In this document: positions 5,148 through 28,550 of the stretch, piece by piece
Position numbering within the stretch: position 1 is the first letter of the stretch
How the letters are laid out: the number at the start of each line of letters is the position of its first letter
Notes under the pieces: generated by a model
What the model was told of the DNA's origin: nothing
Databases searched by the model: none
The model's input: only the letters and a program-made list of their open reading frames with translations
Assembly: GCA_964561845.1 (NCBI GenBank)
Contig: CAZLRK010000001.1
Coordinates: 14,119 to 78,118, forward strand
Source: an uncultured Desulfobacterales bacterium
GTDB lineage: Bacteria; Desulfobacterota; Desulfobacteria; Desulfobacterales; JAUVVS01
Reading direction: 5' to 3'
Length of the DNA stretch: 64,000 bases
Program-made: the position numbers and the translations under genes

Positions 5148-6500
5148 CTAATCATAAATGAAACTAAAGATTGATCTGGGGATAATATTTGTGAAATTAA
5201 TGAAATCAAAAGTGAAATGGGCGAGCATAATGGCCGGGAGAGAACGCGTTCTCAAATAGAGTATCATGAAAAGGGCGCCGATGACCGATGAGACAATCAC
5301 CTTATGAAAACCTCCGCTCCAGTGGATAAGCCCAAAGGCAATTGAGGAGAGCCCAATAATTATGAGGGGGTGCTTGGTAAATCGGGTTAGAAATGCGTGC
5401 ATGTAGCCACGAAAAACCAATTCTTCAAATATTCCCACCATTAAAAGCCCAAAAGTAAGATCAATCCAATTCCACATGGGAGTTCCGATTTTGGGTATAC
5501 CACCCAATTGGGGATAGCCGGGTAATTCATTCAGGATTAGATATCCGTTTGGTCCGATAAACAGACTTGCCAGTGAAGCTATAAGAAATACCGTTAAAAA
5601 TGAAATCACCGGTTGGCTGGTGATTCCTAATTCAGAAAGCTGCATTTTTTTACTGTGAATCAACCAAAGTAAAATTAGAAAAGGAAAAAGTTTCACGGTT
5701 GTATAGTCGATTAAAATCCACAAACGCCAATCGGTGATAAAAATGTTAGAAAAATCGTTCAGGTAAAAAGGGGCGAAAAGTAGGAATGGTATATAAAATA
5801 TTTTTTTATCTTGAGGTGATGACTCGAAATCGATGATGGATGTTTCAAAGGCTTGTTTTTTATCATTTTCTTCTTTTAAAAATTGTATTATTGAATACCC
5901 GCCACCACCTCCAATGACTAGTGCCATCGTCAGAAATACAATAGACCATGCAACCAACTCCGGCATGAAATTTTGCAACCAATCTCCGGATGCGTCACTT
6001 GCGATGGTGGCAAAGCCAAAGCTGAAAGACCATATTATAACGCAAGGTACAATATCACGAGATGAGGCGTTTTCAAAAAGCGCTCTCATCACAAAAGCAG
6101 TTGCAACTCCTCCTATCGCTCCAAATATAGCAAAACTATAAAACGCGAGCACCGCCATTTCTAATGACGATCCTAAAGTATAGAAAAGTGGAGTGACACC
6201 CCCGATGCAACTCAAGGCCCAGACCAGCGAAATAGATAGCCCATGTTTCCACGAGACCTTCCCGCCTACCGTCCTGATGAGGATAGAATGCGACAAACCT
6301 CCCACAAGGCCGAACACCCCTATTGTGATTTGGGCGGCAAGTAAATTTGGAAAGTCGAGAAACCGTGCAGAAAAAATACCGGCAACGCCAAATAAAACCG
6401 CTACTGCCCATCCCAGTATCGAGCGAAAAAGCAAGGAGACTGTGCCTGGTAATGTCGCTTTCACATTATTTGCACACATTTTCGCCGCCCTTTGTGCCAT
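5148..6500 (-). CDS. polytopic membrane protein with a C-terminal CPBP (CAAX/Abi) intramembrane protease domain
   Basis: 450-aa hydrophobic ORF. CPBP motifs FEELVFRGY, FGLIHW and HFTFDF lie in the C-terminal third. Confidence 0.6.
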   Translation of the reverse strand: MAQRAAKMCANNVKATLPGTVSLLFRSILGWAVAVLFGVAGIFSARFLDFPNLLAAQITIGVFGLVGGLSHSILIRTVGGKVSWKHGLSISLVWALSCIGGVTPLFYTLGSSLEMAVLAFYSFAIFGAIGGVATAFVMRALFENASSRDIVPCVIIWSFSFGFATIASDASGDWLQNFMPELVAWSIVFLTMALVIGGGGGYSIIQFLKEENDKKQAFETSIIDFESSPQDKKIFYIPFLLFAPFYLNDFSNIFITDWRLWILIDYTTVKLFPFLILLWLIHSKKMQLSELGITSQPVISFLTVFLIASLASLFIGPNGYLILNELPGYPQLGGIPKIGTPMWNWIDLTFGLLMVGIFEELVFRGYMHAFLTRFTKHPLIIIGLSSIAFGLIHWSGGFHKVIVSSVIGALFMILYLRTRSLPAIMLAHFTFDFINFTNIIPRSIFSFIYD

Positions 6501-6570: not shown

Positions 6571-7233
6571 CTATTTCGCTCCTAAAAGACTACCGATTTT
6601 AACAACGGCGTCTTGTGCATCAAAACCGACTGCATCCGCATTGATTTCATCGGCAAACTCCTGGGTAACAGGGCAACCGCCAACAATTACTTTCACTTTA
6701 TCCCGCAGGTTGGCTTCCTCTAATTGCTTAACCACATAACCCATATTCTCAATGGTCAATGTCAAAAGACTTGACATTCCGACACAATCAGCATTGTGCT
6801 CTATGGCGGCCTTGACAAACGCTTCATTCTCTACATCAATGCCAAGATCCACAACATCGTATCCGTTTGCCTGTAGAACTGCAGCTACCACGGACTTCCC
6901 GATGTCATGGATATCTCCCTTAACCGTTCCGATTACAACCTTTCCTAATGTTTTTCTCGTCTTTCCCTCTGCTTGTATTTTTTCGTCGAGAATGCCGACA
7001 CCTGTCTGCATGACCTCTGCAGCCTGGATTAGTTCTGGAAGAAAAAGTATTCCCGCTCCGAAATCGTTGCCTACCTTGGCAATGCCTTTTGAAAGCCCTT
7101 TTTCAATTGCATCGACAGGATCCATCCCTTTTTCAAGTCCTTCATTTATCAAGTGGGCACATTCATCCTTATAACCATCTATTACGGTCTGAGCGAGTTT
7201 TTCAAAGTATTTTTCGTTTATGTCTTCAGCCAT
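6571..7233 (-). CDS. methyltransferase cognate corrinoid protein (B12-binding)
   Basis: 220 aa. The cobalamin-binding DxHxxG motif is present (GDIHDIGKSVV), followed by a Rossmann-like B12 domain (SSLLT...VIVGG). Confidence 0.85.
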   Translation of the reverse strand: MAEDINEKYFEKLAQTVIDGYKDECAHLINEGLEKGMDPVDAIEKGLSKGIAKVGNDFGAGILFLPELIQAAEVMQTGVGILDEKIQAEGKTRKTLGKVVIGTVKGDIHDIGKSVVAAVLQANGYDVVDLGIDVENEAFVKAAIEHNADCVGMSSLLTLTIENMGYVVKQLEEANLRDKVKVIVGGCPVTQEFADEINADAVGFDAQDAVVKIGSLLGAK

Positions 7234-7290: not shown

Positions 7291-8754
7291 TTATTCGGCA
7301 TCTCGTTTTACTACAAAATCGAGATAATCGTCGATTTCTTTTTGGATCTCAGGTGATACCGGTGATTGGTGAGTTTCTAATATCTTAGCGGCTTTTTGCT
7401 TTGCCTTTTCCTGTAGATCTGTATGTCCTCTTTCCCATGTCTCAAAAAAGTCCCTGTTACTCAGTTCAGGAATGAAAAACTCTTCTCGATACCAATCTCT
7501 GGTATGCCTTCTATTAAGGTAGCTGCCGGGTAGAGGGCCTACTTCAAGAATCTCGTCGACTGCCATCCTTGCATCATCCACTCGTATGCCCTTAAGATAT
7601 TGGCCGATGAATGAGGCAACTTCATTTTCCAAAACCATTTCAGGCCATGTCACAAAATTGAACCCTGCCATTCCGCCGATATCCCATGAAAGAGAAATTC
7701 CGTTTAGAGCGTAATTGTAAAGTTTGAGAGCTTTTTCATATGATGTTTGCTGATCCGTAGTGCAGGAGTCACAAATGCAGAATCCTGTACAGGGGACACC
7801 GTAATACCTTGCCATAGCGGCAATTCCGCCACCGACCGTTCCGTATTCCGGATTCCCGAATGACCAGAGGCCAGTTCTCATATCCATTGACGGATTAAAG
7901 CTGTTGAAAGTTAAAGGGTGACCGGGCTTATATGCCTGAGTTTGAACAACCAGGGCAAGTGTTTCGGCTATAATCTGAACCAGCATGCCAGCCAAAGTAG
8001 CAGGACCCGTGGCTCCGCCCATGAGGGCGCTATAGGCTGTTATGGGTATGCCGGCATCACAGAAACCGATCAACCAACTGGTATAGTTTACATCGATAAC
8101 CCTGGGCGGATTGATAATAACGTGACCGATTAGATGCGGTTTTTCTTTGAGCACTTCGGCGCCGCCAGCGGCAATCTGCCAAATTTTAATAAGGTCAGGG
8201 ATCTCGTGTTCTGCGCCGGTATTGTAGACCCAGGTGCTGGTTTTATTGGTATTTTTCATCTGTTCGCCAACCAGGATCTGGGAATTGCAGATTTTTGGCT
8301 CATCATACAGCCACATCACTGATTTATACAACCCATGGACGTTTTCAAGGGCATCTGCCATCAGGGTTCCCTCGATGGCATCCTTGCGCGTGGCTTGGCG
8401 CCGTTCTCCGGTTCGAAAATCCTCGATATATCGGCCAGTAACTGTGGCAAAATGCACTTCGTCCCATCCGATATTAATATCGAGTTCAGGATCATTACGT
8501 CCATATAACGTAAAATTTCCAGGGCATTTGCTGAAAGCATCCATGATAATTTTTTCTGAAAATTTTATCAACTTTCCGTCCTGTTCGATTTTGCATCCGA
8601 CTTTTTCAAACATTTTTGCAGCTCGTTCGTCGTCACACCTCATTCCGCCTTCCTCAAGCACCCGAACTGCCGCCTTGTGAATCTTTTTGCATTCTTCTTT
8701 TGTGATAGGATATAGAGATCCCACCAACTTTCCTGTAAAACCTTTCATTCTCAT
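7291..8754 (-). CDS. MttB-superfamily methyltransferase, non-pyrrolysine type (quaternary amine / trimethylamine:corrinoid methyltransferase family)
   Basis: 487-aa uninterrupted ORF with no in-frame TAG. The N-terminus (IHKAAVRVLEEGGMRCDDERAAKMFEKVGC) is typical of the MttB family. It sits between corrinoid-protein genes. Confidence 0.8.
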   Translation of the reverse strand: MRMKGFTGKLVGSLYPITKEECKKIHKAAVRVLEEGGMRCDDERAAKMFEKVGCKIEQDGKLIKFSEKIIMDAFSKCPGNFTLYGRNDPELDINIGWDEVHFATVTGRYIEDFRTGERRQATRKDAIEGTLMADALENVHGLYKSVMWLYDEPKICNSQILVGEQMKNTNKTSTWVYNTGAEHEIPDLIKIWQIAAGGAEVLKEKPHLIGHVIINPPRVIDVNYTSWLIGFCDAGIPITAYSALMGGATGPATLAGMLVQIIAETLALVVQTQAYKPGHPLTFNSFNPSMDMRTGLWSFGNPEYGTVGGGIAAMARYYGVPCTGFCICDSCTTDQQTSYEKALKLYNYALNGISLSWDIGGMAGFNFVTWPEMVLENEVASFIGQYLKGIRVDDARMAVDEILEVGPLPGSYLNRRHTRDWYREEFFIPELSNRDFFETWERGHTDLQEKAKQKAAKILETHQSPVSPEIQKEIDDYLDFVVKRDAE

Positions 8755-8794: not shown

Positions 8795-9376
8795 TTAAAA
8801 AGAAGGTGGCGTGATCGCCCAAATAGCCTTAACCTTAGTATCTCCGATAGCTTCCCATGCATGAGGAATAGAACTGTCGTAATAAATACTATCACCCGGC
8901 TGTAAAATAATTTGTTGATCACCTATGATCCCTTTGAAGGTTCCTTCTAATACGATGCCACATTCCTCGCCATCATGTTCATAAAGCGCATCTACCTTTG
9001 TGCCTGCAGGATAATTCAGAAAAATAAATTCAATCTTTCGCTGAAAGTCAGGGCACAACATTTCATGCGATGCACCCCAGGGCATGATCAATTTTTTCCG
9101 CTTGTTTTTTCGGACAATGCTAATTCTATTTGGAGATACATCCTTTTTGCTAGTGACTGAATTACCTGGAAGAGTGTTGTTTTCAGCAAACATGCTGGAG
9201 ATAGGTACATCCAGAGCCTCGGCGATCTCCTGGAGTTTGGTGACCGTTGGGACAGAGAGCCCACGCTCAATTTGACTCAACTGACTTTTGGAAACTCCTG
9301 ATCGTTGTGACAGATCATCCAGTGTCATCTTGGTTTCAAGCCTTACAGACCTGAGTTTATCTCCGAGATTTTTCAT
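8795..9376 (-). CDS. XRE-family HTH transcriptional regulator with a C-terminal cupin domain
   Basis: N-terminal HTH_3 (LDDLSQRSGVSKSQLSQIERG) and C-terminal cupin (GDSIYYDSSIPHAWE). Paralog of 24501..25067. Confidence 0.85.
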   Translation of the reverse strand: MKNLGDKLRSVRLETKMTLDDLSQRSGVSKSQLSQIERGLSVPTVTKLQEIAEALDVPISSMFAENNTLPGNSVTSKKDVSPNRISIVRKNKRKKLIMPWGASHEMLCPDFQRKIEFIFLNYPAGTKVDALYEHDGEECGIVLEGTFKGIIGDQQIILQPGDSIYYDSSIPHAWEAIGDTKVKAIWAITPPSF

Positions 9377-9419: not shown

Positions 9420-10802
9420 TTATAACAAAGAAAAATCGAGTCCGAGTTCCGTTAATTCCATTTTTATTTTTCTATAAAGTTCCAAATATTCACTTGTTGG
9501 TGTGACTCTCTCGATGTCATAAATCTCTTTGAATTTTTTTCCCAGTGGCGCATTGGGAATATCTTTTTCATATTTGGCCAAAATCTTTTTTATTATCTTA
9601 TTGGCCTCTTTGCGTGTCATGCCCATCCGGGCAACAATATGTCCGACTTCTGATCCAGTCTGAATTTCAAGATGTGAGATTCTTTCAGGATATTTATCTC
9701 TGGCGATTCCGGCTGAAACAAGGTTTCCACCTGATACTGTTGATGTCATCGCATGAGCTGCCAGCTCATAAAAGAGCATCTCCGTGCAGGGGCCGGCGGA
9801 AGCCATTGCAACCGATTGGTTGATGAGATGAGTATTTCTGGCAATTGCCTGGCAATACACACTGACGAGCCAGAGCATTTCCGAGCTCGTATTGCATACC
9901 TGGTGAATATCAATGGGAAAGGAAATATGGTAGTTGGCTCTGAAAGCGAGGAGTCCTAAGAAAAAGTGTGCAATCAGAACAATCAGGGTTCCTTCGGGTC
10001 CCCCGGCATATCCACCCATTAGTGGTCCATAGAGACCCGCAATGCCTGAACCGCTTTCAAGCTGAAAGGGTATCTTTCTCAGTCTTGCATAATCAATCTT
10101 TAATTCAGCAATTACTCCGTTTTGCGTTATATCATTTTTTAAAGCTCCAAATTGTTCACGTGCAGCGGCCAGAATGGCATCGGTACTCTCTGCGCATGAT
10201 GTCAGTGCATACAGGCCAAGACCGGGTTTTCCGACTAGTCTCGCGGCTTCACGCCTTTTCGATACATCCCAGATTGCCGCCGCTACTTCAATAGGGTGGC
10301 CTGATCTGATAGGAATTCCTCTAAATGTGTTTTGCAGGGAGACACCGCAAAAGGCATCTGCCAGAGGAACACCGGCTATTGCCCTGGTAACCGGCAAAAA
10401 TTGATCTTCCGGTACAGGAACTCCAAGACCCGATGCAACAAAAGAAGGATCCCTGGAATCCTCAACCTTCCTGGCCTCGGTGATCCTTTGATCCCTTCCG
10501 TCACCCCAAACATAGGAAGATGGGGCATTACTTAACGCGTCTTCAATCTCATCTCTGGTAAAACGGGCTATCCGCATGGTGTCTAGATTGTAAAAACCGA
10601 CCTGCTTGAACAATTCAAGAGCGGCTTCATAGGTTCTGTCTGCAAGGGCGTCATCGCTTGAAACGATTTCATTTTGATCAAAACGGATGTCATATTTTTT
10701 TATAAGATCAGACACATGCGTATATAGAAACATATCATAATCTGTCTCTTCCATACGTTCACCCTTGTCACTTCTTTCCATAACTTCCCAAAAATCGATC
10801 AT
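9420..10802 (-). CDS. MtmB-family (monomethylamine methyltransferase-like) protein, non-pyrrolysine homolog
   Basis: 460 aa. Segments AGPCTEM and the C-terminal FKEIYDIERVTPTSEYLELYRKIKMELTELGLDF closely recall archaeal MtmB. The ORF has no in-frame stop. Corrinoid-protein genes flank it. Confidence 0.65.
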   Translation of the reverse strand: MIDFWEVMERSDKGERMEETDYDMFLYTHVSDLIKKYDIRFDQNEIVSSDDALADRTYEAALELFKQVGFYNLDTMRIARFTRDEIEDALSNAPSSYVWGDGRDQRITEARKVEDSRDPSFVASGLGVPVPEDQFLPVTRAIAGVPLADAFCGVSLQNTFRGIPIRSGHPIEVAAAIWDVSKRREAARLVGKPGLGLYALTSCAESTDAILAAAREQFGALKNDITQNGVIAELKIDYARLRKIPFQLESGSGIAGLYGPLMGGYAGGPEGTLIVLIAHFFLGLLAFRANYHISFPIDIHQVCNTSSEMLWLVSVYCQAIARNTHLINQSVAMASAGPCTEMLFYELAAHAMTSTVSGGNLVSAGIARDKYPERISHLEIQTGSEVGHIVARMGMTRKEANKIIKKILAKYEKDIPNAPLGKKFKEIYDIERVTPTSEYLELYRKIKMELTELGLDFSLL

Positions 10803-10827: not shown

Positions 10828-11472
10828 TTATTTATTCATTATTCCTTTTGCTACTTGTACAGCCTCCACTGCATCTTTTGCATAGCCGTCGGATCCGATT
10901 TCATTTGCCCATTTTTCTGTCACCGGGGCGCCCCCTACAATGACCTTAAAATCATCTCTGATATCCATTTCGGACAACTCTTCAATCACTACCTGCATAA
11001 AGGTCATTGTCGTAGTCATAAGGGCGGAAAGTCCAATGATATCTGCATTTTTGTCCCTTGCCTCACTGATTATCCTATCTACTTTGACATCTTTTCCAAG
11101 GTCGATGATTTCAAAGCCGGAGGTTGACATGATCAATTTCAGAATATTTTTGCCTATATCGTGCATGTCACCCTGAACGGTTGCAAGTACAACTTTTCCC
11201 TTGTCTTGAACCTTCCCAAGATTTTTTGACGCAATGACAGGGTTGAGAATATCAACGCCTGCATTCATAGCTTTTGCAGCCAACATCATCTCAGGAAGAT
11301 AGAATTTGCCTGATTCGAAGTTCTGCCCGACAACCTCCATCCCCTTTGCAAATCCTTTTTGAATGGCCTCTAAAGGATCGATGTCCTCACGAATAGCCTG
11401 ATTGGCTAAATCGATACAGGCCGCCGTATCACGCTTTATGACCGCATTTGCCATTTCTTCCAAAATACTCAT
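10828..11472 (-). CDS. methyltransferase cognate corrinoid protein (B12-binding), second copy
   Basis: 214 aa with DxHxxG motif GDMHDIGKNIL and the same architecture as 6571..7233. It is the first gene of the minus-strand operon. Confidence 0.85.
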   Translation of the reverse strand: MSILEEMANAVIKRDTAACIDLANQAIREDIDPLEAIQKGFAKGMEVVGQNFESGKFYLPEMMLAAKAMNAGVDILNPVIASKNLGKVQDKGKVVLATVQGDMHDIGKNILKLIMSTSGFEIIDLGKDVKVDRIISEARDKNADIIGLSALMTTTMTFMQVVIEELSEMDIRDDFKVIVGGAPVTEKWANEIGSDGYAKDAVEAVQVAKGIMNK

Positions 11473-11830
11473 AGTTTATACCTCCGTTAATATTTCCGAT
11501 AGAGAAAGAATTTCATAAAATAACTTATACAGTCAGTAATAAATATTCAATATATTATATTAAATCCTATATATAAAACATTTATGAAATATATTAATAG
11601 TTGTCAAGCTTGATAATAGCTGACAACATCCAATTTATAATATATATTGGAATTATAGTCTAATTTACTATTAAAAATATAGAATATCTTTAAAAAGCTA
11701 CTAATTTTAAATATTATGGTTAAATATGAGTAGATTATTTCCATTATATCGAACTACATCTGCTCCAAAATTTTAACTTTTTGAAAATAAGCCGCTCCAA
11801 AGATCAATGAACAGGCAGGGAGTGTTTCTC

Positions 11831-11895
11831 TTAAGACACACTTGGCACGGGGGGGATTTTGGATTTGGTTCTAACTGACTGCTAACTTCTTAAAA
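11831..11895. repeat. family-C intergenic repeat module
   Basis: TTAAGACACACTTGGCACGGGGGGGATTTTGGATTTGGTTCTAACTGACTGCTAACTTC is the near reverse complement of 44696-44760. Confidence 0.6.
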
Positions 11896-11988
11896 TCTTA
11901 GAATATCGAATGTCGAACAAGGAACCGCAATTTAATCTATTTGTTTTCTTAAAAAAAGTGTTGCCATGTGCTATATGATTTTATACTA

Positions 11989-12004
11989 TTTTCGATATCG
12001 AAAA
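11989..12004. promoter_or_regulatory. perfect 16-bp palindrome TTTTCGATATCGAAAA, candidate operator upstream of the pyrE-like gene
   Basis: Perfect dyad 29 nt upstream of the 12033 start, just downstream of TTGCCA ... TATACT promoter-like hexamers. Confidence 0.3.
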
Positions 12005-12032
12005 CACTTAAGAAGTGAGAGGAGCATGAGCA

Positions 12033-12701
12033 ATGCCTTACAATCAGTATGACGAGATAAGAAACCTCATCTGGCAAGAAGAGAAAAAGTATCTTATGAA
12101 AAAGGTTGCTTTTGATCTGGTTCTAAATGATGCGCTCAAAATCGGCGATTATATCCTTTACTCCGGGAAGAAAAGTCCCTATTACGTGGATCTTCGACAA
12201 TCCATCTCAGATCCCATAACAATGGATTTGATAGCCAATTCTTTGGCTCGCATCATCGACAATGAAATCGGAAGAAACAAATTCGATAAAATTATGGGAG
12301 TTCCTACAGCCGGTGTCCCTTTCACAACCATTGTGTGTCAGAAGTTGGCCATACCTATGCTTTACTATCGCAAGGAAAGAAAGGAACACGGTGTTCGGAA
12401 AAAGATCGAAGGTAAGATGGAAATAAACGACCGCATCCTCATGATAGATGATCTCATCACCACCGGCAAGAGTGTTATTCAAGCTGCAGAAGCTGCCCGG
12501 GAACAGGGAGGGCTGGTTACCGAGCTGGTGGTGCTTTTGAACAGAGAGCAAGGGGGACGAGAGTTTATCTTATCCAACAATATCCGCCCACATGTTCTTT
12601 TTAATATTTCCGATGCCTTTGAGTGGCTACGTGAAGTCAATTTGCTAAATGAAGATGATTACAAAGTGATTATGGATTATATTAATGAAGAAAGAAGTTA
12701 G
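12033..12701 (+). CDS. pyrE: orotate phosphoribosyltransferase-like protein
   Basis: PRTase PRPP-binding motif ILMIDDLITTGKS, plus YSGKKSPYYVDLR and GVPTAGVPF, typical of type I OPRTases. RBS GAGAGGAG. An N-terminal extension of about 20 aa is possible. Confidence 0.65.
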   Translation: MPYNQYDEIRNLIWQEEKKYLMKKVAFDLVLNDALKIGDYILYSGKKSPYYVDLRQSISDPITMDLIANSLARIIDNEIGRNKFDKIMGVPTAGVPFTTIVCQKLAIPMLYYRKERKEHGVRKKIEGKMEINDRILMIDDLITTGKSVIQAAEAAREQGGLVTELVVLLNREQGGREFILSNNIRPHVLFNISDAFEWLREVNLLNEDDYKVIMDYINEERS

Positions 12702-12709
12702 TATAAATT

Positions 12710-14059
12710 CTATTTTAGCTTCTTCAGAATTCTGGTTTGTAAGAATTTTCCTTTTCCACTGATACCTTTTAGTTTCATATCCTCTACGATTATATCTCCC
12801 CGATGCATGACCAAAGTGGGGGCTCCAAGACACTCCAAGCCCTCATAAAGCGTATAACCTGCATTTGAATGCTGTGTATTTTGCGATATTGTATGCCTTA
12901 TGGCAGGATCGAATATCACGAGATCTGCATCGGATCCAGTCTGCAGAACGCCTTTTTGAGGATAGAGACCGAATATTTTTGCAGGCGTTTCACTCAACGC
13001 TCTGATGAGGGTGCAAAGATCAACCCGACCTTCATTAACGCCTTTTTGATAAGCGACGGCCAACATGGTTTCAGTCGACGGGGAGCCAAAAGGAGCATCG
13101 AAGAAATCGTCGTCTATCTTCTTGGCCTTCGGCGCATGGTCACTGGCAATCACATCTATGAGCCCTGTTTTAAGACCCTCCCATAGGGCCTGGTTGTCTT
13201 GAGGTGTCCGCAGCGGGGGGCCTATTTTTGCCAGCGGCCCTTTCTCCTGTAAGTTTTTATCCGTCAGGACGAGATATTGGGGGCAGGTCTCCGTATATAC
13301 GGTCTGGCCCTTATCCCTAGCCCATCGAATGGGCTCAAGCGCGCGACTCGCACTAATATGGACGATGTAAAGTGCACAGTTCATGGTCTCGGCAATGGAA
13401 ATCGCCCGAAAGATGGCATCGGTTTCGAGCGCTGCCGGTCGCATTTTTAAAAAAACATCTCTCTGGGGTTGATTGCGGTATTTATCTTCAAGATAATCAA
13501 TTGAAAGGCCGTCTTCTCCATGCACCATGGCCAGCCCATCCAACTCGGAAATGATATCCATCGCCTTGGACAAATAGTAGTCGTCGGTCATCCAGCCCAG
13601 TTTGGCATATGTCATGAACATTTTAAAAGAGGTCACACCCATGTCAAAGCATTTCGGGATATCCTGGATTTGATTCTGTGCATCGAACATGGCCCCATGG
13701 ATAGCGAAATCCGTGTAGGAGGTGGCTTTACCTTCATCGATGAATTGTCTGACTGTCTCCGCTAGTTCCATACCGGGCCTGGCATATGCATAGTGGATCA
13801 TCGTGGTGATACCACCGAAGGCCCCCAAGGCGGAGCAGTCTTGTATAGTATCGACATAGACGGGATGTGTGTGGACGTCGAGCAGGCCCGGAATAATGTA
13901 TTTTCCACTACCGTCGATGACCGCCCGGGCTTCATTTTCCGGCAGATCAGGGGCCATTTTGGCAATTCTGCCGTCTCTAATCGCAATGTCGGTTTTGCAG
14001 ATATTTTGCGGACCGACAATCAGCCCGCTTTTTATGAGTTGATCAAACCTGTTTTCCAT
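12710..14059 (-). CDS. cyclic amidohydrolase, D-hydantoinase/dihydropyrimidinase family
   Basis: 449 aa. Metal-binding DVHTHP, carboxylated-lysine context VTSFKMFMTY, VHGEDG, YIVHIS, ETCPQYL and IASDHAP match hydantoinase/dihydropyrimidinase better than type I dihydroorotase. Confidence 0.75.
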   Translation of the reverse strand: MENRFDQLIKSGLIVGPQNICKTDIAIRDGRIAKMAPDLPENEARAVIDGSGKYIIPGLLDVHTHPVYVDTIQDCSALGAFGGITTMIHYAYARPGMELAETVRQFIDEGKATSYTDFAIHGAMFDAQNQIQDIPKCFDMGVTSFKMFMTYAKLGWMTDDYYLSKAMDIISELDGLAMVHGEDGLSIDYLEDKYRNQPQRDVFLKMRPAALETDAIFRAISIAETMNCALYIVHISASRALEPIRWARDKGQTVYTETCPQYLVLTDKNLQEKGPLAKIGPPLRTPQDNQALWEGLKTGLIDVIASDHAPKAKKIDDDFFDAPFGSPSTETMLAVAYQKGVNEGRVDLCTLIRALSETPAKIFGLYPQKGVLQTGSDADLVIFDPAIRHTISQNTQHSNAGYTLYEGLECLGAPTLVMHRGDIIVEDMKLKGISGKGKFLQTRILKKLK

Positions 14060-14248
14060 TTTTATAACTCCATTTCAATTTCAGAAAATATTACCAACAA
14101 CGGCCCAGGAGGCTATCAGAGAATAGCAATTTTTTCTCAAATCAAGGCATTTTTTAAAAAATAAGCACAGTCATATATTTGATATTACGAGCATTATTTT
14201 TTCAAAATAACGCTGAGTTGGGGAAAAAGGGCATTCTCAGACAGCCTC

Positions 14249-15346
14249 CTACGGTACAATTGTCGTTCCTGCATTACCCGCCAGGGTTTCACGAAATAAC
14301 TCAACCGTCGTAATATAGGCTTTATTACCGCCACCGAGGACAAAATTAACAGCCGCTTGAACTTTAGGTTTCATACTCCCTGCGGGGAAGTGTCCCTTGT
14401 CGCATAATTGCTGGGCTTCATTTGCTGTTAATAATCTCAAATCCTTTTGGTTCGGCTCTCCGAAATTGAGCTTAGCTCCGTCAACATTTGTAAATATGGT
14501 AAACTCGGCTTCAAGATCTTCTTTGCGTTCGGCTGCTCGACGAATAAGCATTTCCCCCAACAGGCTCGAAGCCAAATCTTTATCAATAACGGCATCTACG
14601 CCGGAGTACACAGCGGCTGAGGTTTCGCTTTGATGCGGACGTCTGAAAACAATCTCATGCCGGCACTCATAAATCTCCTCTCCATCAGCTATTCCAGGTT
14701 TTACAGGGACAACCGGAATACCACCGCCGCCAACGGCTATGGAAATAAATCCGGCTTTGAGATTGGCTTCAACAACCTCGATTTCTACAATGTCAATAGG
14801 TTTGGGTGATCCGACCACTCTTCGCCAGATCTCCTCACCTTGATCATTTTTTTTATATAACTTGAATAATTGTAGCTCTCTTTCTTTTTCAGAAACTTCT
14901 TCATGCGTAAAAGAGGGGCCTATGAATTTAGTAGGGTCTTTAAAATCCGGATCATCAGGATCAACTACAACTTGAGTAACGATGGTTGCAAGGCCTTTGT
15001 TGATACCTCGCACTCTGAGGGCATTTGCGACATGGGCCATCATGAACCCCATCGCACCTTGGGTATCTGCAACAATAGTATCAAGCGGTATGGGGGGCAT
15101 GATCGGAAGAGAATACTCGGACCGAAGTAAAATATTCCCCACTTGTGGCCCATTACCATGGGTTAGAATATAATAGTCGTCTGGATTTTTCTGTATAATC
15201 TCTGAAAGTAGATCGCACGTTTTAGCAGCGCGCCGCCACTGTGCCGGAATATCCGGATTGATTGTTTTGCCAGTCTCCGGATCGACTATATCTGTGGGAG
15301 CGACCTCATTTCCGCCCAGAGCAAAGATTCTTAAACATTTTCTCAT
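14249..15346 (-). CDS. carbamate kinase-like protein (amino-acid kinase fold)
   Basis: 365 aa. Motifs FALGGNE, HGNGPQVGN, GGGGIPV and AVIDKDLAS are present. It is longer than the carbamate kinases I recall, with an extra segment between GGGGIPV and VIDKD. Confidence 0.7.
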   Translation of the reverse strand: MRKCLRIFALGGNEVAPTDIVDPETGKTINPDIPAQWRRAAKTCDLLSEIIQKNPDDYYILTHGNGPQVGNILLRSEYSLPIMPPIPLDTIVADTQGAMGFMMAHVANALRVRGINKGLATIVTQVVVDPDDPDFKDPTKFIGPSFTHEEVSEKERELQLFKLYKKNDQGEEIWRRVVGSPKPIDIVEIEVVEANLKAGFISIAVGGGGIPVVPVKPGIADGEEIYECRHEIVFRRPHQSETSAAVYSGVDAVIDKDLASSLLGEMLIRRAAERKEDLEAEFTIFTNVDGAKLNFGEPNQKDLRLLTANEAQQLCDKGHFPAGSMKPKVQAAVNFVLGGGNKAYITTVELFRETLAGNAGTTIVP

Positions 15347-15369
15347 CTTTTGTCTTCCCTATAATGATA

Positions 15370-16332
<963 letters not shown>

Positions 16333-16347
16333 TTATTTTAACAACTT

Positions 16348-18663
16348 TCAAATTACTTTCCGGGCCTTAAGTATCTTCTCCGGTGTCAGGGGGAGATCAA
16401 AAATTCTGGCCCCGATGGCATCGCATACTGCATTGGCTATAGCCGGTGCAGGAGAAGTGCATGCCGGCTCTCCTATCCCTTTTGCGCCAAACGGCCCTAC
16501 GCCGTCGCCTGACTCAACCAGAATAGTCTCAACATCCGGGGAGTCAACGGATGTAGGAATAATAAATTCAGCAAAAGAGGGAGTAAGTGTAATTCCTTTG
16601 TTTAAAATTATTTCTTCGGTCAGACCGTATCCCATACCATAAATAGCGCCTCCTTCGATTTGTCCCTCAACGCTGTTTAGATTGATAGCCTGCCCAACAT
16701 CAAAACATGCAATCAGTTTGAGAACCTTAACTTTGCCGGTTTCCACATCAACCGATACCTCCGCTGCATGAGTTCCAAAGGTAAAATCCGAAAAGACTTG
16801 ACCCTGGCCGGTTTTAAAATCAATTAGCTCTCTGAAAGGGCCGTTAAACTGGGCCAAACTATAAACGGGGATACCGTCAGAAGCGCAGGCCTTCACAACA
16901 TCACCCAGGGGAAGGGACACGATTGGATTGCCCTTGACTTGGATTTTGTTGTCCATGAGTTCAATATCCTCTTTACTCGATTTAAGCAATTCTTCGGCCT
17001 TTGATAGAAGGGTTTCCTTTAATTCAGTTGCAGCTTTTAATGTAGCGTTACCTGACATGTATAGTTGACGGGTAGCAGTTGTCGTACCTGCAATAGGTGT
17101 TAATGCCGTGTCGCCGAAATAAACGGTGACATTTTCCATGGAAACACCCAAAACCTCCGCCGCGATGGAAGCCAGTGAAGATGCCTGTCCTCCGCCGATA
17201 TCCTGAACTCCGCATCTTACTACAATACTACCGTCCATCTCTGCGCTTACATAAGAGCGGGAGGTGTCGTGAAGAAAAACCATCCGGCCGTAACTTTGCA
17301 TCCCGGAAGCGATTCCTCTGCCTATCTTTTCTGTAGGAGATCCCGGTTTAGAAGATTTTCCAAGGGCTGCCAGAGCCTTTTCAGCGGTCTGCTCGGTTTC
17401 AACACCGTGCTCCAGGATTCTTCCCGTGGCTAATTTGTCTCCTTTTCTCAAATAATTTTTTTTGCGGATTTCAATGGGCGTCATATTGAGCTTTCGAGCC
17501 ATTTCGTCCATTTGGCATTCATATGCAAAACAGACCTGAGGTGCTCCGAATCCTCTGTTGGCGCTGCAAAATGTGTTGTTGGTTAACACGGTGTAAGAGT
17601 CGACTTTAACATGCGTAATGTCATAGGGTCCGGTTGCCATTACGGTTGAATAGAGCAGCACCCAGGGACTTAGATAGATATGCCCTCCGGAGTCAGAAAT
17701 CAGCTCTATTTCATTGGCTACAAGTTTGCCGTCTTTAGTGGCACCGGTTTTGTATTTCATAATATAAGGATGGCGCTTGCTGGTTACAATTATCGATTCT
17801 TCACGGGTATAGGTCATTTTAACAGGCTTACTGGTTTTTTGGGTTAACAGGGCGAGGTAGGTCTCAACTGTAATATCCTCCTTACTTCCAAATCCACCTC
17901 CCACCATGGGAGCGATAACCCTGACCTGGTTATGAGGAACCCCAAGAACATCGGCAATACCTCTGAAATGTTCGATTACCTGTGTGCATACCCGTATTGT
18001 GATAACTCCGTCTTCATCTATCCAGGCTAAACCTGATTCCGGCTCCAGAAAAGCATGCTCCACAAACGGCACGTGATATGTATTCTCAATTATGACATCT
18101 GAATCGGCAAACCCTTTTTCAACATCCCCTTTTCGTACTTTATAACTGCAGATGATATTGCTTTGTTCTTCACCAACCTGGTAGGCGTCGGGTTTCATGG
18201 CTTCGATAGGATCAAACACACCAGGAAGGGGGTCATATTCCACTTGAATCAGTTTTATGGCTTCTTCGGCAATTGCCTCTGTTTTCGCTGCTACCAGGGC
18301 AACGCCTTCTCCCATGTATCTAACCTTTTTATCTGCTAAAACACGGTAGAGCCCTTCAAACCCGCCGACTTTATGGGTTTGTCCAAAACGGGTTACCGTT
18401 TCGTTGTTAGGTACATCTTTGGCAGTCAATACAGCTTCAACTCCCGGAAGCTTTTCTGCTTTTGTGGTGTCTATGGATAGAATATTTGCCGCAGGATATT
18501 TGGTCCTTAAAACTTTTCCATAAAGCATTCCCGGAGTTTCAAAATCTTCGGCATATTTTGTTTTTCCTAGCACCTTATCCCAGGCATCATGTCGAGGTAT
18601 ACGTTTACCAATGACCCGGTAATCGGCTTTTTCGGATGTTTCGGTTTTGACTTTATTAAGCAT
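16348..18663 (-). CDS. xanthine dehydrogenase/aldehyde oxidase-family molybdopterin-binding large subunit (set 1)
   Basis: 771 aa with an N-terminal a/b-hammerhead region and MoCo-binding domains (GGGFGSKED, GIGEP near the C-terminus). Confidence 0.85.
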   Translation of the reverse strand: MLNKVKTETSEKADYRVIGKRIPRHDAWDKVLGKTKYAEDFETPGMLYGKVLRTKYPAANILSIDTTKAEKLPGVEAVLTAKDVPNNETVTRFGQTHKVGGFEGLYRVLADKKVRYMGEGVALVAAKTEAIAEEAIKLIQVEYDPLPGVFDPIEAMKPDAYQVGEEQSNIICSYKVRKGDVEKGFADSDVIIENTYHVPFVEHAFLEPESGLAWIDEDGVITIRVCTQVIEHFRGIADVLGVPHNQVRVIAPMVGGGFGSKEDITVETYLALLTQKTSKPVKMTYTREESIIVTSKRHPYIMKYKTGATKDGKLVANEIELISDSGGHIYLSPWVLLYSTVMATGPYDITHVKVDSYTVLTNNTFCSANRGFGAPQVCFAYECQMDEMARKLNMTPIEIRKKNYLRKGDKLATGRILEHGVETEQTAEKALAALGKSSKPGSPTEKIGRGIASGMQSYGRMVFLHDTSRSYVSAEMDGSIVVRCGVQDIGGGQASSLASIAAEVLGVSMENVTVYFGDTALTPIAGTTTATRQLYMSGNATLKAATELKETLLSKAEELLKSSKEDIELMDNKIQVKGNPIVSLPLGDVVKACASDGIPVYSLAQFNGPFRELIDFKTGQGQVFSDFTFGTHAAEVSVDVETGKVKVLKLIACFDVGQAINLNSVEGQIEGGAIYGMGYGLTEEIILNKGITLTPSFAEFIIPTSVDSPDVETILVESGDGVGPFGAKGIGEPACTSPAPAIANAVCDAIGARIFDLPLTPEKILKARKVI

Positions 18664-18718
18664 AGTTGATTTCCTTTATATTACAGCCTAATTGAGCGAA
18701 AATAATGCTCACTTAGGC

Positions 18719-18844
18719 GTTAATTGTTATTTGTTATTCGTTATTAGAATTTGATCGTCTCATTTTATAAATCTATGGTTGGTGAAATATAAAAACAGAT
18801 ATAATTCCTTTTAAACCATTAACCAATAACAAATAACGAATAAC
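18719..18844. repeat. paired low-complexity heptamer-periodic arms (GTTATTN units vs NAATAAC units) around an AT-rich spacer
   Basis: Left arm GTTAATTGTTATTTGTTATTCGTTATTAG and right arm CATTAACCAATAACAAATAACGAATAAC. It lies inside the operon, between the 2Fe-2S and Mo-subunit genes of set 1. Confidence 0.55.
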
Positions 18845-18880
18845 TCCCAATTGGTTTTTACTCGCTTGGGGTTACAGCCA

Positions 18881-19348
18881 TTATTTTTTTAAAGCTATCT
18901 CTTCAATGGCATCAATAATTTTAACATATCCGGTGCAGCGGCAAAGATTTCCGGAGATAGCTTCTTTTATCTCTTCCCTTTCGGGTTTTGGGTTTTTATC
19001 AAGTAAAGTCTTAGCAGATAAAACCATGCCTGGTGTGCAGAAACCACATTGAATAGCTCCGGACTCAACAAAGCTCTTTTGAAGCGGATGAGGTTTTTCT
19101 TCGGTTCCAATCCCCTTAATCGTGATTATTTCCTTACCATCGGCTTGAACAGCAAGTGTTAAACATGAATTTACAGCTTTTCCATCCATTATAACAGTGC
19201 ATACGCCACAGTCGCCCTGGTCGCAACCGTTTTTAACTTCAATTGCTTTTAAATTATTTCGTAATGTTTCAAGAAGTGTTTCCCGGGCGGTTACATCCAC
19301 CTTTTGCCGTTCACCATTAACGCTGATTTCGATTTGATACTTTTTCAT
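18881..19348 (-). CDS. (2Fe-2S)-binding small subunit of the XDH-family enzyme (set 1)
   Basis: 155 aa with cysteine motifs CDQGDCGVCTV and CGFCTPG...CRCTGY. It overlaps the upstream FAD-subunit gene by 4 nt. Confidence 0.9.
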   Translation of the reverse strand: MKKYQIEISVNGERQKVDVTARETLLETLRNNLKAIEVKNGCDQGDCGVCTVIMDGKAVNSCLTLAVQADGKEIITIKGIGTEEKPHPLQKSFVESGAIQCGFCTPGMVLSAKTLLDKNPKPEREEIKEAISGNLCRCTGYVKIIDAIEEIALKK

Positions 19349-20214
19349 ATTCCAAGGCTCCTATTCAAAGCATTTAAAATTGTTCTTTTAAAAATTGCCG
19401 TTGTTACATATCGTCGATATTCGGCTGAGCCGCGAATATCACCTATGGGAGAAATTTCTTCACGGAGGGTAATCGCGCATTCATCTATCAGTTTTTGATC
19501 GACCTGCTTGCCTTTGAGAAGTTCTTCAACCCGATAGGCACGAATCGGTGTCGGTGCTACGGAACCCAGTGCGATTCGGATTTTGTCGCATATATTTGAT
19601 TTCTTTTGGGTTATCACCGCGATGCTGGAGATAGATATGGCGGATGCGTTTCTAAGTCCTATTTTGGTAAAACTGCCTTTTGCTGAAGCGTTTGGTTTAG
19701 GGATTGTGATATGAGTGAGTATTTCCCCTTTTCTTAAATCTGTTTGTCTGTAACTCTTAAAAAATAATTCCAAAGGTACATCTCTATGGGTGCTATCCGG
19801 ACCTGCAATATGTGCCAAAGCCTCAAGAGCCAATAGGGGAGGGGCTGTGTCCGCGGCTGGTGAAGCATTAACCAGATTTCCTCCAATGGTGGCCCGGTTT
19901 CTAGTTAAAGGATTTCCTATCTGGCCGGCAGCAGAAGCCAGAATAGGGCATAGAGTGTTTATGGTATTACTTGAAGCAATATCAGCAATAGTGGTTGCCG
20001 CGCCGATGGATATGATACCATTCTCTTCCTTTATATAGGAGAGGTCTTTCATGTCGCTTAGATCAATTAAAACCTCCGATGATTTTTCACCATTTCTCAT
20101 TTGGGGAATCAGATTCGTTCCGCCGGCAATAATTGTTGCCCTGTCTTTGTTTTTTGCTAAAAAACTTGTAAGTTCTGTTAAATTGTTTGGCCTTATGTAT
20201 TCTGTGTTATTCAT
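19345..20214 (-). CDS. FAD-binding (CoxM/XdhB-like) medium subunit (set 1)
   Basis: FAD-binding PCMH-type motifs (IIAGGTNL, ATIGGNL). Start placed at ATG 20214 behind AAAAAGGAA; the ORF extends to 20271. Confidence 0.8.
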   Translation of the reverse strand: MNNTEYIRPNNLTELTSFLAKNKDRATIIAGGTNLIPQMRNGEKSSEVLIDLSDMKDLSYIKEENGIISIGAATTIADIASSNTINTLCPILASAAGQIGNPLTRNRATIGGNLVNASPAADTAPPLLALEALAHIAGPDSTHRDVPLELFFKSYRQTDLRKGEILTHITIPKPNASAKGSFTKIGLRNASAISISSIAVITQKKSNICDKIRIALGSVAPTPIRAYRVEELLKGKQVDQKLIDECAITLREEISPIGDIRGSAEYRRYVTTAIFKRTILNALNRSLGI

Positions 20215-20340
20215 AGTATTCCTTTTTTCGAGTTCTTTAATTTTAGCGCAGCAAGCCATAGAACGCTTCAAATGTCCCCACGATTAGTTCGGAAGTTCAG
20301 ACGCTGATCAATCGGAACATATTTTAAAAACCGCAATAGA

Positions 20341-20385
20341 GTATTGTCTGTTAAATTCCAAGTATTTGGTCACCTTCTCCTAAGC
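20341..20385. repeat. partial copy of the core module of the 1751-2064 element
   Basis: The reverse complement (TTAGGAGAAGGTGACCAAATACTTGGAATTTAACAGACAATAC) closely matches 1868-1912 (TTAGGAGAAGGTGACTAAATATTTGGGATTTAACAAACAATAT). Confidence 0.55.
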
Positions 20386-20404
20386 AAATAGGACGTAGCT
20401 TACT

Positions 20405-20884
20405 TTATTTATTTTGTATATTCTCCGCGCAATTCTTAATGGCTCTGACAATACCATGATAACCCGTGCATCGGCAAATGTTGCCCTTAATTTGACGGCG
20501 AATCTCATCTTCATCGGGATTAGGATTTTTCGACAAGAGGTCTTTGGCAACGAGAATCATACCAGGAGTGCAGTAGCCACATTGAATGGCATTTGTATCT
20601 AAGAATGCTTCCTGAATCGGATCCAACGCGCCGTCCGGTTGGGCCACCCCTTCTATTGTGGTAATTTCAGCTCCATCAACGGCAACGGCAAGTGTAAGGC
20701 AACTCAGCACCGGTTCGCTATTCACTAATACTGTACATCCGCCGCATTGACCGGTACCGCAGCAATATTTGGCGCCGGTTAGTCCCAAATCTTCTCTCAG
20801 CAGATTTAGCAAAAGCGTATTTGGCTCAACCAAAAAATCGCAAGCTTCACCATTTATTGTAAAGTTAATTCTTTTTTTATCCAT
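20405..20884 (-). CDS. (2Fe-2S)-binding small subunit (set 2)
   Basis: Motifs CGTGQCGGCTV and CGYCTPG...CRCTGY. The ATG at 20884 overlaps the stop of the upstream FAD-subunit gene (TAATG). Confidence 0.9.
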   Translation of the reverse strand: MDKKRINFTINGEACDFLVEPNTLLLNLLREDLGLTGAKYCCGTGQCGGCTVLVNSEPVLSCLTLAVAVDGAEITTIEGVAQPDGALDPIQEAFLDTNAIQCGYCTPGMILVAKDLLSKNPNPDEDEIRRQIKGNICRCTGYHGIVRAIKNCAENIQNK

Positions 20885-21771
20885 TATACGTTCTCTCCGG
20901 CCCTTTGCCACGCCAGTTTGAAGACGTCCATGAACAAAACACCGGCAACCTGTTTCCTGTAATCCTCGGTTGAGCGCATGTCTGTAATGGGCTTGATCTC
21001 TTCTGAAACCATCTTTCCGGCCTCATCAATAATTGTTTCATCAATTTTGTTTTCGGCAAGTATTTTTTCAGTGGAAAACATTCTTATGGGCACAGCAGCC
21101 ACAGCACCCATGGCAATCCTACAAGCATTACAAGTCTCTCCTTCTCGCTCCACTGCAACGGCACAGCTTATTTTGGAAATATCCGAAGCAACCCGTGATT
21201 TTTTTTTAAAAGCACTTCCCGAACCTTTTCCGATTCGAGGAACTTGTATCTCCGTCATGATTTCATCTGGAGACATGGCTGTTTTATTGGGACCCTGAAA
21301 AAAATCCTCAAGTTGAACCAGCTTTTCCCCTTGCTCACTTAGAATCTTCACGAGGCCCTTTAAAACCAGAAGAGCAGGGGCGGAATCGGCGGCAGGTGAG
21401 GCGGTGCAAAGATTTCCTCCCAACGTCCCCATGTTTATTACCTGGATTTTACCAATTGAAGAAACGGCTTCATAGAGCGCAGTATAATTTTCATCTCCGT
21501 CACAAATCCGCATAATGTCACGCAATTTAGCTGCCGCTCCGATTCGCAACCCATTATCTTTGTTAATATCTCCTAACTCCGAGATCTTCATAATGTTGAT
21601 CAGGCAATCTGGTGTTATCTTTTCATACTTTAAATGGGGCACGATGTCGGTGCCGCCTGCAATAATCTTTGCGTCTTTCCCGTACCGAGTCAAAAGTTGA
21701 AGTGTTTCGGCAATGGTTTTTGGTGTAAAGTATTCAAAATCATGTGCTATTATTCTGGTATTTACCGGCAT
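20884..21771 (-). CDS. FAD-binding medium subunit (set 2)
   Basis: 295 aa with IIAGGTDI and GTLGGNL motifs. It lies immediately downstream of the set 2 Mo subunit. Confidence 0.85.
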   Translation of the reverse strand: MPVNTRIIAHDFEYFTPKTIAETLQLLTRYGKDAKIIAGGTDIVPHLKYEKITPDCLINIMKISELGDINKDNGLRIGAAAKLRDIMRICDGDENYTALYEAVSSIGKIQVINMGTLGGNLCTASPAADSAPALLVLKGLVKILSEQGEKLVQLEDFFQGPNKTAMSPDEIMTEIQVPRIGKGSGSAFKKKSRVASDISKISCAVAVEREGETCNACRIAMGAVAAVPIRMFSTEKILAENKIDETIIDEAGKMVSEEIKPITDMRSTEDYRKQVAGVLFMDVFKLAWQRAGENV

Positions 21772-21775
21772 GGTC

Positions 21776-25527: not shown

Positions 25528-25767
25528 ATGAATAAGGAAGCTTTAACAAAACATGAAATTTATAATAAGCTGTTTGGATTTACCGAACATGATTTAGATG
25601 CTATTGTCAATTTTATCGATTTTATGAGGCATAAAAAAAAGCTTGGAACAAAAAAGGTAATCAAACTTGAAGGTATTCTTAAGGGTCATGATATAGACTT
25701 TTCCGATCTGAAGAAGTTAAAACAGCAAACCTGGAAGCACGTTGACCAGGAGTTTGCCAATGGATAG
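25528..25767 (+). CDS. putative antitoxin of a PIN-toxin pair
   Basis: 79-aa ORF with RBS GAAGGAAGG. Its stop overlaps the ATG of the downstream PIN gene by 8 nt. Confidence 0.5.
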   Translation: MNKEALTKHEIYNKLFGFTEHDLDAIVNFIDFMRHKKKLGTKKVIKLEGILKGHDIDFSDLKKLKQQTWKHVDQEFANG

Positions 25768-26245: not shown

Positions 26246-26334
26246 CTGCCAATTTTAAATATAATCTGTAACATTTTAACTGTTTGAACAACAAAGCCAT
26301 CAAATTTGCCAACTGTATACATATGGAGGTAAAA

Positions 26335-28500: not shown

Positions 28501-28550
28501 TTTTTGAGTTTTTACATTTTTACCTTTTGGACCGGGGTTTGGGGCGGGCT

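Follow-up and report, generated by a model that had tools for sequence, protein, structure and literature searches.

The subject of this analysis is a gene for a methyltransferase of the MtmB family in a 64,000-nucleotide (nt) stretch of DNA from an uncultured Desulfobacterales bacterium (contig CAZLRK010000001.1, positions 14,119 to 78,118 of the forward strand). This whole stretch is called the window, and coordinates are counted from its first letter. The gene encodes a protein of 460 amino acids (aa) that has a tyrosine at the position where the archaeal monomethylamine methyltransferase MtmB of Methanosarcina barkeri carries pyrrolysine (Pyl). It belongs to a run of six minus-strand genes that lie head to tail with gaps of 25 to 70 nt. 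The features of this operon are the following.

9420-10802, minus strand: non-Pyl methyltransferase of the MtmB family, a first methyltransferase (MT1), 460 aa (Pfam, PDB match, AlphaFold2 model)
10209-10211, minus strand: codon TAT for Tyr198, aligned with Pyl202 of M. barkeri MtmB (pairwise and multiple alignments)
10828-11472, minus strand: corrinoid protein 1, the cognate one, 214 aa, with DMHDIG at residues 102-107 (Pfam B12-binding and B12-binding_2)
8795-9376, minus strand: regulator with an XRE-type helix-turn-helix (HTH) and a cupin domain, PuuR-like, inside the operon (Pfam HTH_3 and Cupin_2)
7291-8754, minus strand: non-Pyl methyltransferase of the MttB superfamily, the second MT1, 487 aa, uninterrupted (PF06253, E = 2e-84)
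6571-7233, minus strand: corrinoid protein 2, 220 aa, with DIHDIG at residues 107-112 (Pfam B12-binding domains)
5148-6500, minus strand: membrane protein with a C-terminal CPBP/Rce1-like domain, the last gene on this strand (PF02517)
11473-12032, minus strand: AT-rich intergenic region of 560 nt, the presumed promoter region 5' of the operon

The product of the open reading frame is a genuine member of the MtmB family. The frame runs from ATG to TAA through 460 codons, none of them a stop, and a GGAGG ribosome-binding site lies 5' of it. A preliminary description, made from the sequence without database searches, had already reported the uninterrupted frame, had likened the protein to archaeal MtmB, and had proposed a search with a hidden Markov model of that family. 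This search gave a significant match to PF05369 (E = 1.7e-92, 311 bits with a cut-off of 25) that extends from end to end, with residues 3-455 on profile positions 2-450 of 450. M. barkeri MtmB1 (PDB 1L2Q/1NTH) is matched over residues 3-457 (E = 3e-60), and the two proteins share 30% identity along the full length of the TIM barrel. The AlphaFold2 model, built on 59 homologs (pLDDT 93.6, pTM 0.93), superposes on 1NTH with a template modelling (TM) score of 0.94 and a root mean square deviation of 1.8 Å over 459 columns. The three motifs that had first drawn attention to the protein were all found in their places: AGPCTEM at residues 336-342, identical in M. barkeri MtmB, VTPTSEYLELY at residue 433, and LGLDF at residue 453. 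GGYAGG and the C-terminal VTPT-EY are likewise common to both enzymes. A search of the protein against NCBIfam returned no model at an E-value of 0.01 or better. The bacterial origin of the gene, also part of the preliminary description, is borne out by a gene for DNA polymerase III delta beside the window on the same contig, by an HrpA-type helicase inside the window, and by the nearest homologs of the protein, which are all in bacterial metagenome-assembled genomes (MAGs).

The residue that replaces Pyl could be placed to within one position. The segment GLGLYALTS corresponds to GMGV-Pyl-GPETS of M. barkeri, and Tyr198 falls under Pyl202 in the HMMER pairwise alignment and in MAFFT alignments of 118 and of 143 sequences. 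The alignment is free of gaps from a conserved RPG motif to Tyr198. In a MAFFT alignment of 212 sequences, a gap comes one column earlier and Ala199 is found at Pyl202, so the assignment is good to within one residue. In the AlphaFold2 model, a short strand (residues 196-197) comes immediately before Tyr198, which agrees with the description of Pyl202 in MtmB as anchored to a barrel strand (PMC9842639). Among full-length homologs of at least 49% identity, the Pyl column holds Tyr in 90 of 117 and His in the other 27. The Pyl-equivalent region is therefore present, and the sense-coded Tyr that the preliminary description had placed there holds up, to within the one residue mentioned. The TAT codon differs from TAG by a single substitution, to which we give no weight, and in the window TAG often serves as an ordinary stop codon. 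A tRNA gene search found no tRNA gene, and hence no pylT, in the 64-kb window, and no pyl operon gene was detected there by Pfam. The window protein thus differs from M. barkeri MtmB, which has UAG-encoded Pyl in an acidic pocket, in having Tyr198, a bacterial host, and no Pyl machinery in the window.

The surroundings of this position have changed as well. E205, E229, E259, Q333, and Y335 are the residues that we take to lie around Pyl in M. barkeri MtmB, and their identities were confirmed in the M. barkeri sequence. Here they are replaced by T201, Q227, L257, V331, and M333, respectively, and all 117 homologs of at least 49% identity have the Leu of position 257. Residues H279, W311, R322, and R240 are likewise invariant and specific to the clade. 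The pocket is neutral or hydrophobic, with Met and Cys residues. The non-Pyl proteins nearest to true MtmB (40-45% identical to it) carry I, L, M, F, or T in place of Pyl and retain E205, D229, E259, and Y335. These proteins keep the pocket and the clade with Tyr does not, which indicates that the Tyr-type clade has rebuilt the site more thoroughly. Such rebuilding argues against monomethylamine and for another mode of substrate binding. Because Pyl is missing and the acidic residues around it are now neutral or hydrophobic, a substrate other than monomethylamine is to be expected, and monomethylamine itself is, as far as the sequence can tell, very unlikely.

Some database proteins deserve mention in this connection (P numbers denote database proteins, and L numbers, used below, denote loci or contigs of relatives). 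Seven of them (P0327, P0328, P0331, P0315, P0332, P0335, and P0338) are full-length, are 46-57% identical to M. barkeri MtmB, and have Gln or Lys exactly at the Pyl position, with most or all of the acidic pocket residues kept. They may be true Pyl enzymes for which gene callers translated UAG as Q or K, and not variants with a sense codon. P0146 and P0312 (261 aa, starting three residues past the Pyl column) were considered as Pyl-containing relatives and rejected; P0146 is a truncation at a contig end and has His at the site.

The operon contains two pairs of an MT1 and a corrinoid protein. The first corrinoid gene ends 25 nt before the start of the MtmB homolog, and its product has the DxHxxG motif, so that the methyltransferase does have its own corrinoid protein in the operon, as had been stated. 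A cognate DxHxxG corrinoid protein is also a feature of M. barkeri MtmB, and here its gene lies directly upstream. Against TIGR02370, the model for methyltransferase cognate corrinoid proteins, corrinoid protein 1 scores 209.6 bits, with a cut-off of 215.3. The regulator reaches 65 bits with the NCBIfam PuuR model, far under the cut-off. The MttB homolog scores 215 bits against MtgB of D. hafniense (2QNE/9YCE). Four residues of MtgB bind glycine betaine, namely Y97, R312, H348, and F356 (PMC13080624); in the MttB homolog they correspond to Thr, a gap, Asp, and a retained Phe. Glycine betaine was therefore rejected as the substrate of this neighbor, as three of the four binding residues are not conserved. 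The gene for the CPBP membrane protein follows the second corrinoid gene after 70 nt. None was found beside the module in the other genomes examined, and its membership in the system is uncertain. Only weak sigma-70-like matches, by consensus, occur in the intergenic region upstream (11616-11588 and 11577-11549). A cobalamin riboswitch or other RNA element was considered there and rejected, with no Rfam match at the gathering threshold anywhere in the window. The preliminary description had missed the MttB homolog, the second corrinoid protein, and the embedded XRE-cupin regulator, as well as the recurrence of the whole module next to a molybdenum hydroxylase in other genomes, to which we now turn.

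A word-indexed search returned 449 homologs of the MtmB homolog, and 219 clusters at 50% identity match it with an E-value of 1e-30 or better; of the 150 listed of these 219, most are proteins of about 455-470 aa without interruption. At least 24 metagenome contigs carry the identical protein, with the gene order unchanged. Among GTDB species representatives the exact protein was found in none, and the top match is 73%. The closest relatives, 58-84% identical, are from uncultured Spirochaetota, Desulfobacterota, and Actinomycetota. Within this range, the best genome matches (70-73%) are MAGs of Spirochaetota and Desulfobacterota, and MAGs of Thermoleophilia and other Actinomycetota stand at 58-65%. 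A large clade at 44-53% includes Desulfobacterales, Spirochaetota, Anaerolineae, Syntrophaceae, and Marinimicrobia, and homologs from Peptococcaceae/Bacillota (39-43%) and Asgard archaea (38-40%) are more distant. In a neighbor-joining tree the protein lies far from M. barkeri MtmB and from the nearest non-Pyl groups.

In 60 of 69 related loci, a corrinoid protein gene is no more than 5 kb from the MtmB homolog, and as a rule it lies directly upstream. The more complete module, in the order corrinoid protein, MtmB homolog, XRE-cupin regulator (not always present), MttB homolog, and second corrinoid protein, was found in MAGs of three phyla, from Spirochaetota, Desulfobacterota, and Thermoleophilia (L007, L009-L013, L017, L066, and L087-L092). 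In these contigs the orthologs of the MtmB homolog are 58-84% identical and those of the MttB homolog 72-87%. Overall, MttB-homolog orthologs reach 72-90%, the 90% being a protein of Desulfobacteraceae UBA2156, and in L022 the neighbor is an MtmB-family paralog of 53% identity. Orthologs of the regulator (50-76%) occupy the same module in L087/L088, L010/L089, L066, and L017, and orthologs of the second corrinoid protein (65-76%) come after the MttB homolog in related loci. Genes for further steps of such a system are also seen in relatives. A pterin-binding methyltransferase of the methyl-corrinoid:tetrahydrofolate type is encoded directly upstream in L007, and the L066/L018 contig has MtrH-like, URO-D-type, and RACo/RamA-type activase genes.

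Upstream of the operon, the window holds the following features.

16348-18663, minus strand: molybdenum hydroxylase of the xanthine dehydrogenase family, molybdenum cofactor (MoCo) subunit, 771 aa (Pfam)
18881-19348, minus strand: 2Fe-2S subunit of the molybdenum hydroxylase (Pfam)
19345-20271, minus strand: flavin adenine dinucleotide (FAD) subunit of the molybdenum hydroxylase (Pfam)
20405-24130: second set of xanthine dehydrogenase family subunits (Pfam)
24501-25067: second XRE-cupin regulator, heading the hydroxylase group

Orthologs of the MoCo subunit (54-76%), and of the FAD and 2Fe-2S subunits too, are found near the module in six other contig groups. With this window counted, the hydroxylase stands beside the module in 7 of about 12 contig groups that bear orthologs. 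It follows the second corrinoid gene directly in L088 and L089/L090, is two genes further on in L091, lies within a few kilobases in L012 and L013, and on the L066/L018 contig comes directly after a Tyr-type paralog. No hydroxylase ortholog was found in about 55 loci of more distant clades. Among solved structures, the hydroxylase is closest to 4-hydroxybenzoyl-CoA reductase (392 bits) and to the split nicotinate dehydrogenase of E. barkeri, whose two chains score 320 and 217 bits. The region at 12033-24130, which includes pyrE-type, dihydropyrimidinase/hydantoinase-like, carbamate-kinase-like (with an insertion), and aspartate-carbamoyltransferase-type genes and the two hydroxylase sets, looks like an energy-conserving cluster for the degradation of an N-heterocycle. 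Co-regulation of the operon and the hydroxylase through their two XRE-cupin regulators was considered and rejected, as these are only 29% identical.

A sister clade with a context of its own is formed by paralogs that have His in place of Pyl and share about 49% identity with the window protein. In five loci of Syntrophaceae and deltaproteobacterial MAGs (L038, L042, L046, L051, and L070) a corrinoid gene and the MtmB homolog lie between a TRAP transporter and a full set of Hut genes, with HutH, HutU, HutI, and FtcD (glutamate formimidoyltransferase) all above their NCBIfam cut-offs; the same loci also hold a HisC-type aminotransferase and a cyclohydrolase. Since this clade is found inside complete Hut clusters, the gene context suggests a methylated histidine, an imidazole amino acid, as the compound that it may demethylate. 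Other members are accompanied by a sodium:solute symporter, a HisC-type aminotransferase, and a D-2-hydroxyacid dehydrogenase, and about eight loci have one corrinoid gene followed by tandem genes for an MtmB and an MttB homolog. In a further observation, a molybdopterin oxidoreductase of about 700 aa and of cytoplasmic type, with Fe4S4, Molybdopterin, and Molydop_binding domains, adjoins the MtmB/MttB homolog pair in His-type loci L047, L049, L053, L057-L060, and L071. No link of corrinoid methyltransferases to trigonelline, methylhistidine, or hercynine was found in the literature searched, nor any account there of the MtmB homologs in Hut clusters.

We propose that the MtmB homolog is the MT1 of a corrinoid-dependent demethylase whose substrate is not monomethylamine but another methylated nitrogen compound, possibly a heterocycle with an N-methyl group, and we consider this proposal as a whole to be probable. 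The general part of it, an MT1 of a corrinoid system with a substrate that is not monomethylamine, can be put forward with high confidence on the basis of family, pocket, and operon. The heterocycle part is tentative and should be taken as a minority expectation. In the proposed mechanism, the methylated nitrogen compound would bind in the TIM barrel's center, where Pyl and the methylamine adduct sit in archaeal MtmB, and its N-methyl group would be presented to Co(I) of the corrinoid protein encoded upstream, giving methyl-Co(III) and the demethylated product. A second methyltransferase (MT2) would then pass the methyl group to tetrahydrofolate and a reductive activase would keep the cobalt reduced, neither being encoded in the window; this direction of methyl flow and this acceptor we infer, as we do the substrate class. 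The MtmB homolog would work in a conserved two-enzyme module with the non-Pyl MttB homolog, which has a corrinoid protein of its own, and in relatives this module is fused to the molybdenum hydroxylase. In the favored form of this reading, a cationic heterocycle with methylated nitrogen, for instance a pyridine, purine, or pyrimidine base that bears methyl groups, would lose its N-methyl groups to the two methyltransferases, after which the molybdenum hydroxylase could attack the demethylated ring.

The contexts of the module, together with the sister clade embedded in Hut clusters, give a short, testable list of candidate substrates. From its gene contexts, this part of the family seems to serve the catabolism of N-methylated heterocycles or amino acids rather than of simple methylamines. 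A more specific version is that the Tyr-type clade and its MttB partner are undescribed anaerobic cobalamin-dependent demethylases of ring-N-methylated heteroaromatics (candidates being pyridinium betaines of the trigonelline or homarine type and methylated purines or pyrimidines) that hand the demethylated ring to the clustered hydroxylase, that the His-type clade would do likewise for methylated histidine before the Hut pathway, and that the Tyr or His would assist in holding or protonating the ring. We regard this version as speculative and less likely than not.

Several points weigh against the heterocycle reading. Gene neighborhood is the one source for the substrate class, and neighborhood cannot name a substrate. 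N-methyl groups on neutral ring nitrogens are poor targets for Co(I) unless the ring is cationic or protonated. The hydroxylase is under every NCBIfam equivalog cut-off (its matches being XdhA-like). In the window it is not fused to the module but is separated from the first corrinoid gene, upstream of it, by 4.9 kb and four genes, namely a divergent pyrE-like gene and genes for a dihydropyrimidinase-like amidohydrolase, a carbamate-kinase-like protein, and an aspartate-carbamoyltransferase-type protein, and these pyrimidine-type genes are not conserved with the module in other loci. No hydroxylase was found within the available sequence of L007, L008, L009, L011, and L017. Pfam searches of the 64-kb window found neither an MT2 (pterin-binding, MtrH-type, or URO-D-type) nor a RamA/RACo activase. 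ABC importers of the PotABCD type and HemL-like class III aminotransferases recur as well and would fit a cationic amine equally. Finally, the sole characterized non-Pyl MtmB uses aliphatic quaternary amines (PMC13044021).

That enzyme is MtqB of Methanococcoides methylutens Q3c (ACT9XH_RS04775), whose demethylation of tetramethylammonium and choline was reported in March 2026. It methylates cob(I)alamin with either compound, and it was described as the first non-Pyl MtmB to have a function shown (PMC13044021). Non-Pyl MtmB enzymes had been known for years, and in a tree of 1,061 sequences the function outside the MtqB and Pyl clades is unknown (PMC13044021). The statement in the preliminary description that the substrate range of these enzymes is essentially unexplored thus mostly stands, but it is slightly outdated by MtqB. 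It is conceivable, if unlikely, that the MtmB homolog is a functional ortholog of MtqB, which would demethylate tetramethylammonium and/or choline, with the MttB homolog taking a related aliphatic quaternary amine. MtqB is the only characterized non-Pyl MtmB homolog, it resembles the window protein in size (459 aa) and shares its gene order, a corrinoid protein of 216 aa being encoded directly upstream (PMC13044021), and presumably it too acts directly, without Pyl, on an N-methyl group that is already cationic. The neutral or hydrophobic pocket with Met and Cys recalls the sulfur-containing and aromatic residues around the docked ligand in MtqB (PMC13044021), and the MttB neighbor has lost the carboxylate-binding residues of MtgB. 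A gene of the choline/ethanolamine kinase family is present at 695-1744, and one MttB homolog is known to serve a choline route that depends on a kinase (PMC12155760).

Against this stands that the hits of at least 49% identity include no methanogen and no genome-sized contig, and that no Methanococcoides or Methanosarcina was seen among the 80 best GTDB loci, down to 38%, with two search patterns that may miss them. The MtqB clade has been placed next to the Pyl-containing MtmBs (PMC13044021), from which the window protein is far removed in the neighbor-joining tree. Nor did a methanogen-named non-Pyl protein come up in a profile search with the three non-Pyl representatives nearest to M. barkeri MtmB, in a search with the M. 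barkeri enzyme, or in cluster look-ups. This indirect evidence speaks for a place of the MtmB homolog outside the MtqB group, and an identity of less than 49% to MtqB follows indirectly. MtqB is also a methanogen enzyme whose methyl group goes to coenzyme M, with no MttB homolog or molybdenum hydroxylase reported as a partner. The kinase-family gene lies 4.8 kb away with unrelated genes between and is missing from all related loci, and its best NCBIfam models, thiamine kinase and GntI, are both far under cut-off; choline by way of this gene was rejected for these reasons, as it is near no homolog and is not choline-kinase-like by NCBIfam. An MtqB-like function would leave the linkage to the hydroxylase unexplained.

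Other relatives with sense codons give a broader comparison. Further members of the non-Pyl MttB superfamily, MtcB, MtpB, and MtyB, are quaternary-amine methyltransferases. MtgB (glycine betaine) and MthB (phosphocholine) are sense-codon members of a Pyl family that act on a charged methylammonium group; they belong to anaerobic bacteria, each is paired with a corrinoid protein of its own, and the acceptor is tetrahydrofolate (PMC13080624, PMC12155760), and one homolog of this family is encoded in the present operon. The MtmB homolog itself differs from this family (Foldseek TM about 0.5, identity 14-15%).

No better supported, in our judgment, is serial action on one aliphatic methylated amine, in which the MttB homolog would remove a first methyl group from a quaternary amine and the MtmB homolog a later one, and the primary amine would then be transaminated. 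This would account for two MT1 families with separate corrinoid proteins in one conserved module, and it is consistent with the PuuR-like regulator, with the roughly eight His-type loci in which a corrinoid gene precedes tandem MtmB and MttB homologs, and with the PotABCD-like importers (L008, L010, L011, and L066) and class III aminotransferases (L007, L011, L013, and L091) beside orthologs. The class III enzymes, however, are of the HemL type, above the NF000818 cut-off, and the class I/II aminotransferases are of the HisC/CobD type and so may serve cofactor synthesis or histidine-type metabolism. The aminotransferase neighbors were therefore rejected as proof of a primary-amine product, their signal being ambiguous. 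Activation, which Pyl provides in MtmB and MtbB, is required for secondary and tertiary amines, and a substitute for it would be needed here. No transporter or aminotransferase adjoins the operon in the window, and the linkage to the hydroxylase is again left without an explanation.

A halomethane, methyl sulfide, methoxylated compound, or other substrate that is not an amine has a slim chance of being correct. In 'Ca. Formimonas warabiya' DCMF, of the Peptococcaceae, grown on dichloromethane, the protein with the strongest induction was a non-Pyl member of the MtmB superfamily (PMC9768040), and Peptococcaceae homologs are 39-43% identical to the window protein. This protein, Ga0180325_111810, is likewise a bacterial non-Pyl member of the MtmB family that was flagged as probably not a monomethylamine enzyme (PMC9768040). 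It differs in being induced by dichloromethane, and any relation to the Tyr-type clade would be conjectural. All the neighborhood signals are, moreover, related to nitrogen metabolism: Hut genes, aminotransferases, polyamine-type importers, a hydroxylase whose family has N-heterocycle hydroxylases among its members, and a PuuR-like regulator. That the protein is a monomethylamine:corrinoid methyltransferase working without Pyl is hardly credible, for the source annotations that call homologs 'monomethylamine:corrinoid methyltransferase' or 'methylamine--corrinoid protein Co-methyltransferase' are automatic labels based on homology and find no support in the NCBIfam search, the small residual monomethylamine activity of MtqB (PMC13044021) notwithstanding, and the Pyl that binds and activates methylamine in MtmB (PMC9842639) is missing along with all the acidic residues around it.

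Elsewhere in the window, a diversity-generating retroelement occupies 26284-33578, with a reverse transcriptase gene at 30002-30994 and a template repeat at about 30994-31182 directly after it. The two variable repeats (28364-28552 and 33390-33578) lie at the 3' ends of two genes that each encode a caspase and an FGE-sulfatase domain (26284-28500 and 31670-33442), and mismatches in the repeat core are nearly confined to adenines of the template. Genes for an HRDC-domain protein (29107-29667) and a GIY-YIG protein (28571-28963) are situated between these elements. A gene for a hybrid-cluster (prismane) protein (36490-38118) adjoins a divergent gene for a Crp-family regulator (35384-36154), and PIN-domain toxin-like genes lie at 25742-26149 and 34991-35365.

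Both the observation made in the preliminary description and its interpretation are supported by these results. The class itself is not new, as non-Pyl MtmB homologs are a large recognized family with one characterized member since 2026. The function of the hundreds of Pyl-free MtmB relatives has long been an open question, which this locus narrows and does not answer. Its value lies in a distinct, rebuilt active site, in which Tyr takes the place of Pyl, and in a two-methyltransferase module that travels between phyla as a unit and is repeatedly joined to a molybdenum hydroxylase. If the proposed function is true, it would mean that common N-methylated osmolytes or nucleobases can be demethylated independently of oxygen in anoxic marine or sediment habitats. 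It would also extend the account of how the Pyl families diversified after losing, or before gaining, pyrrolysine.

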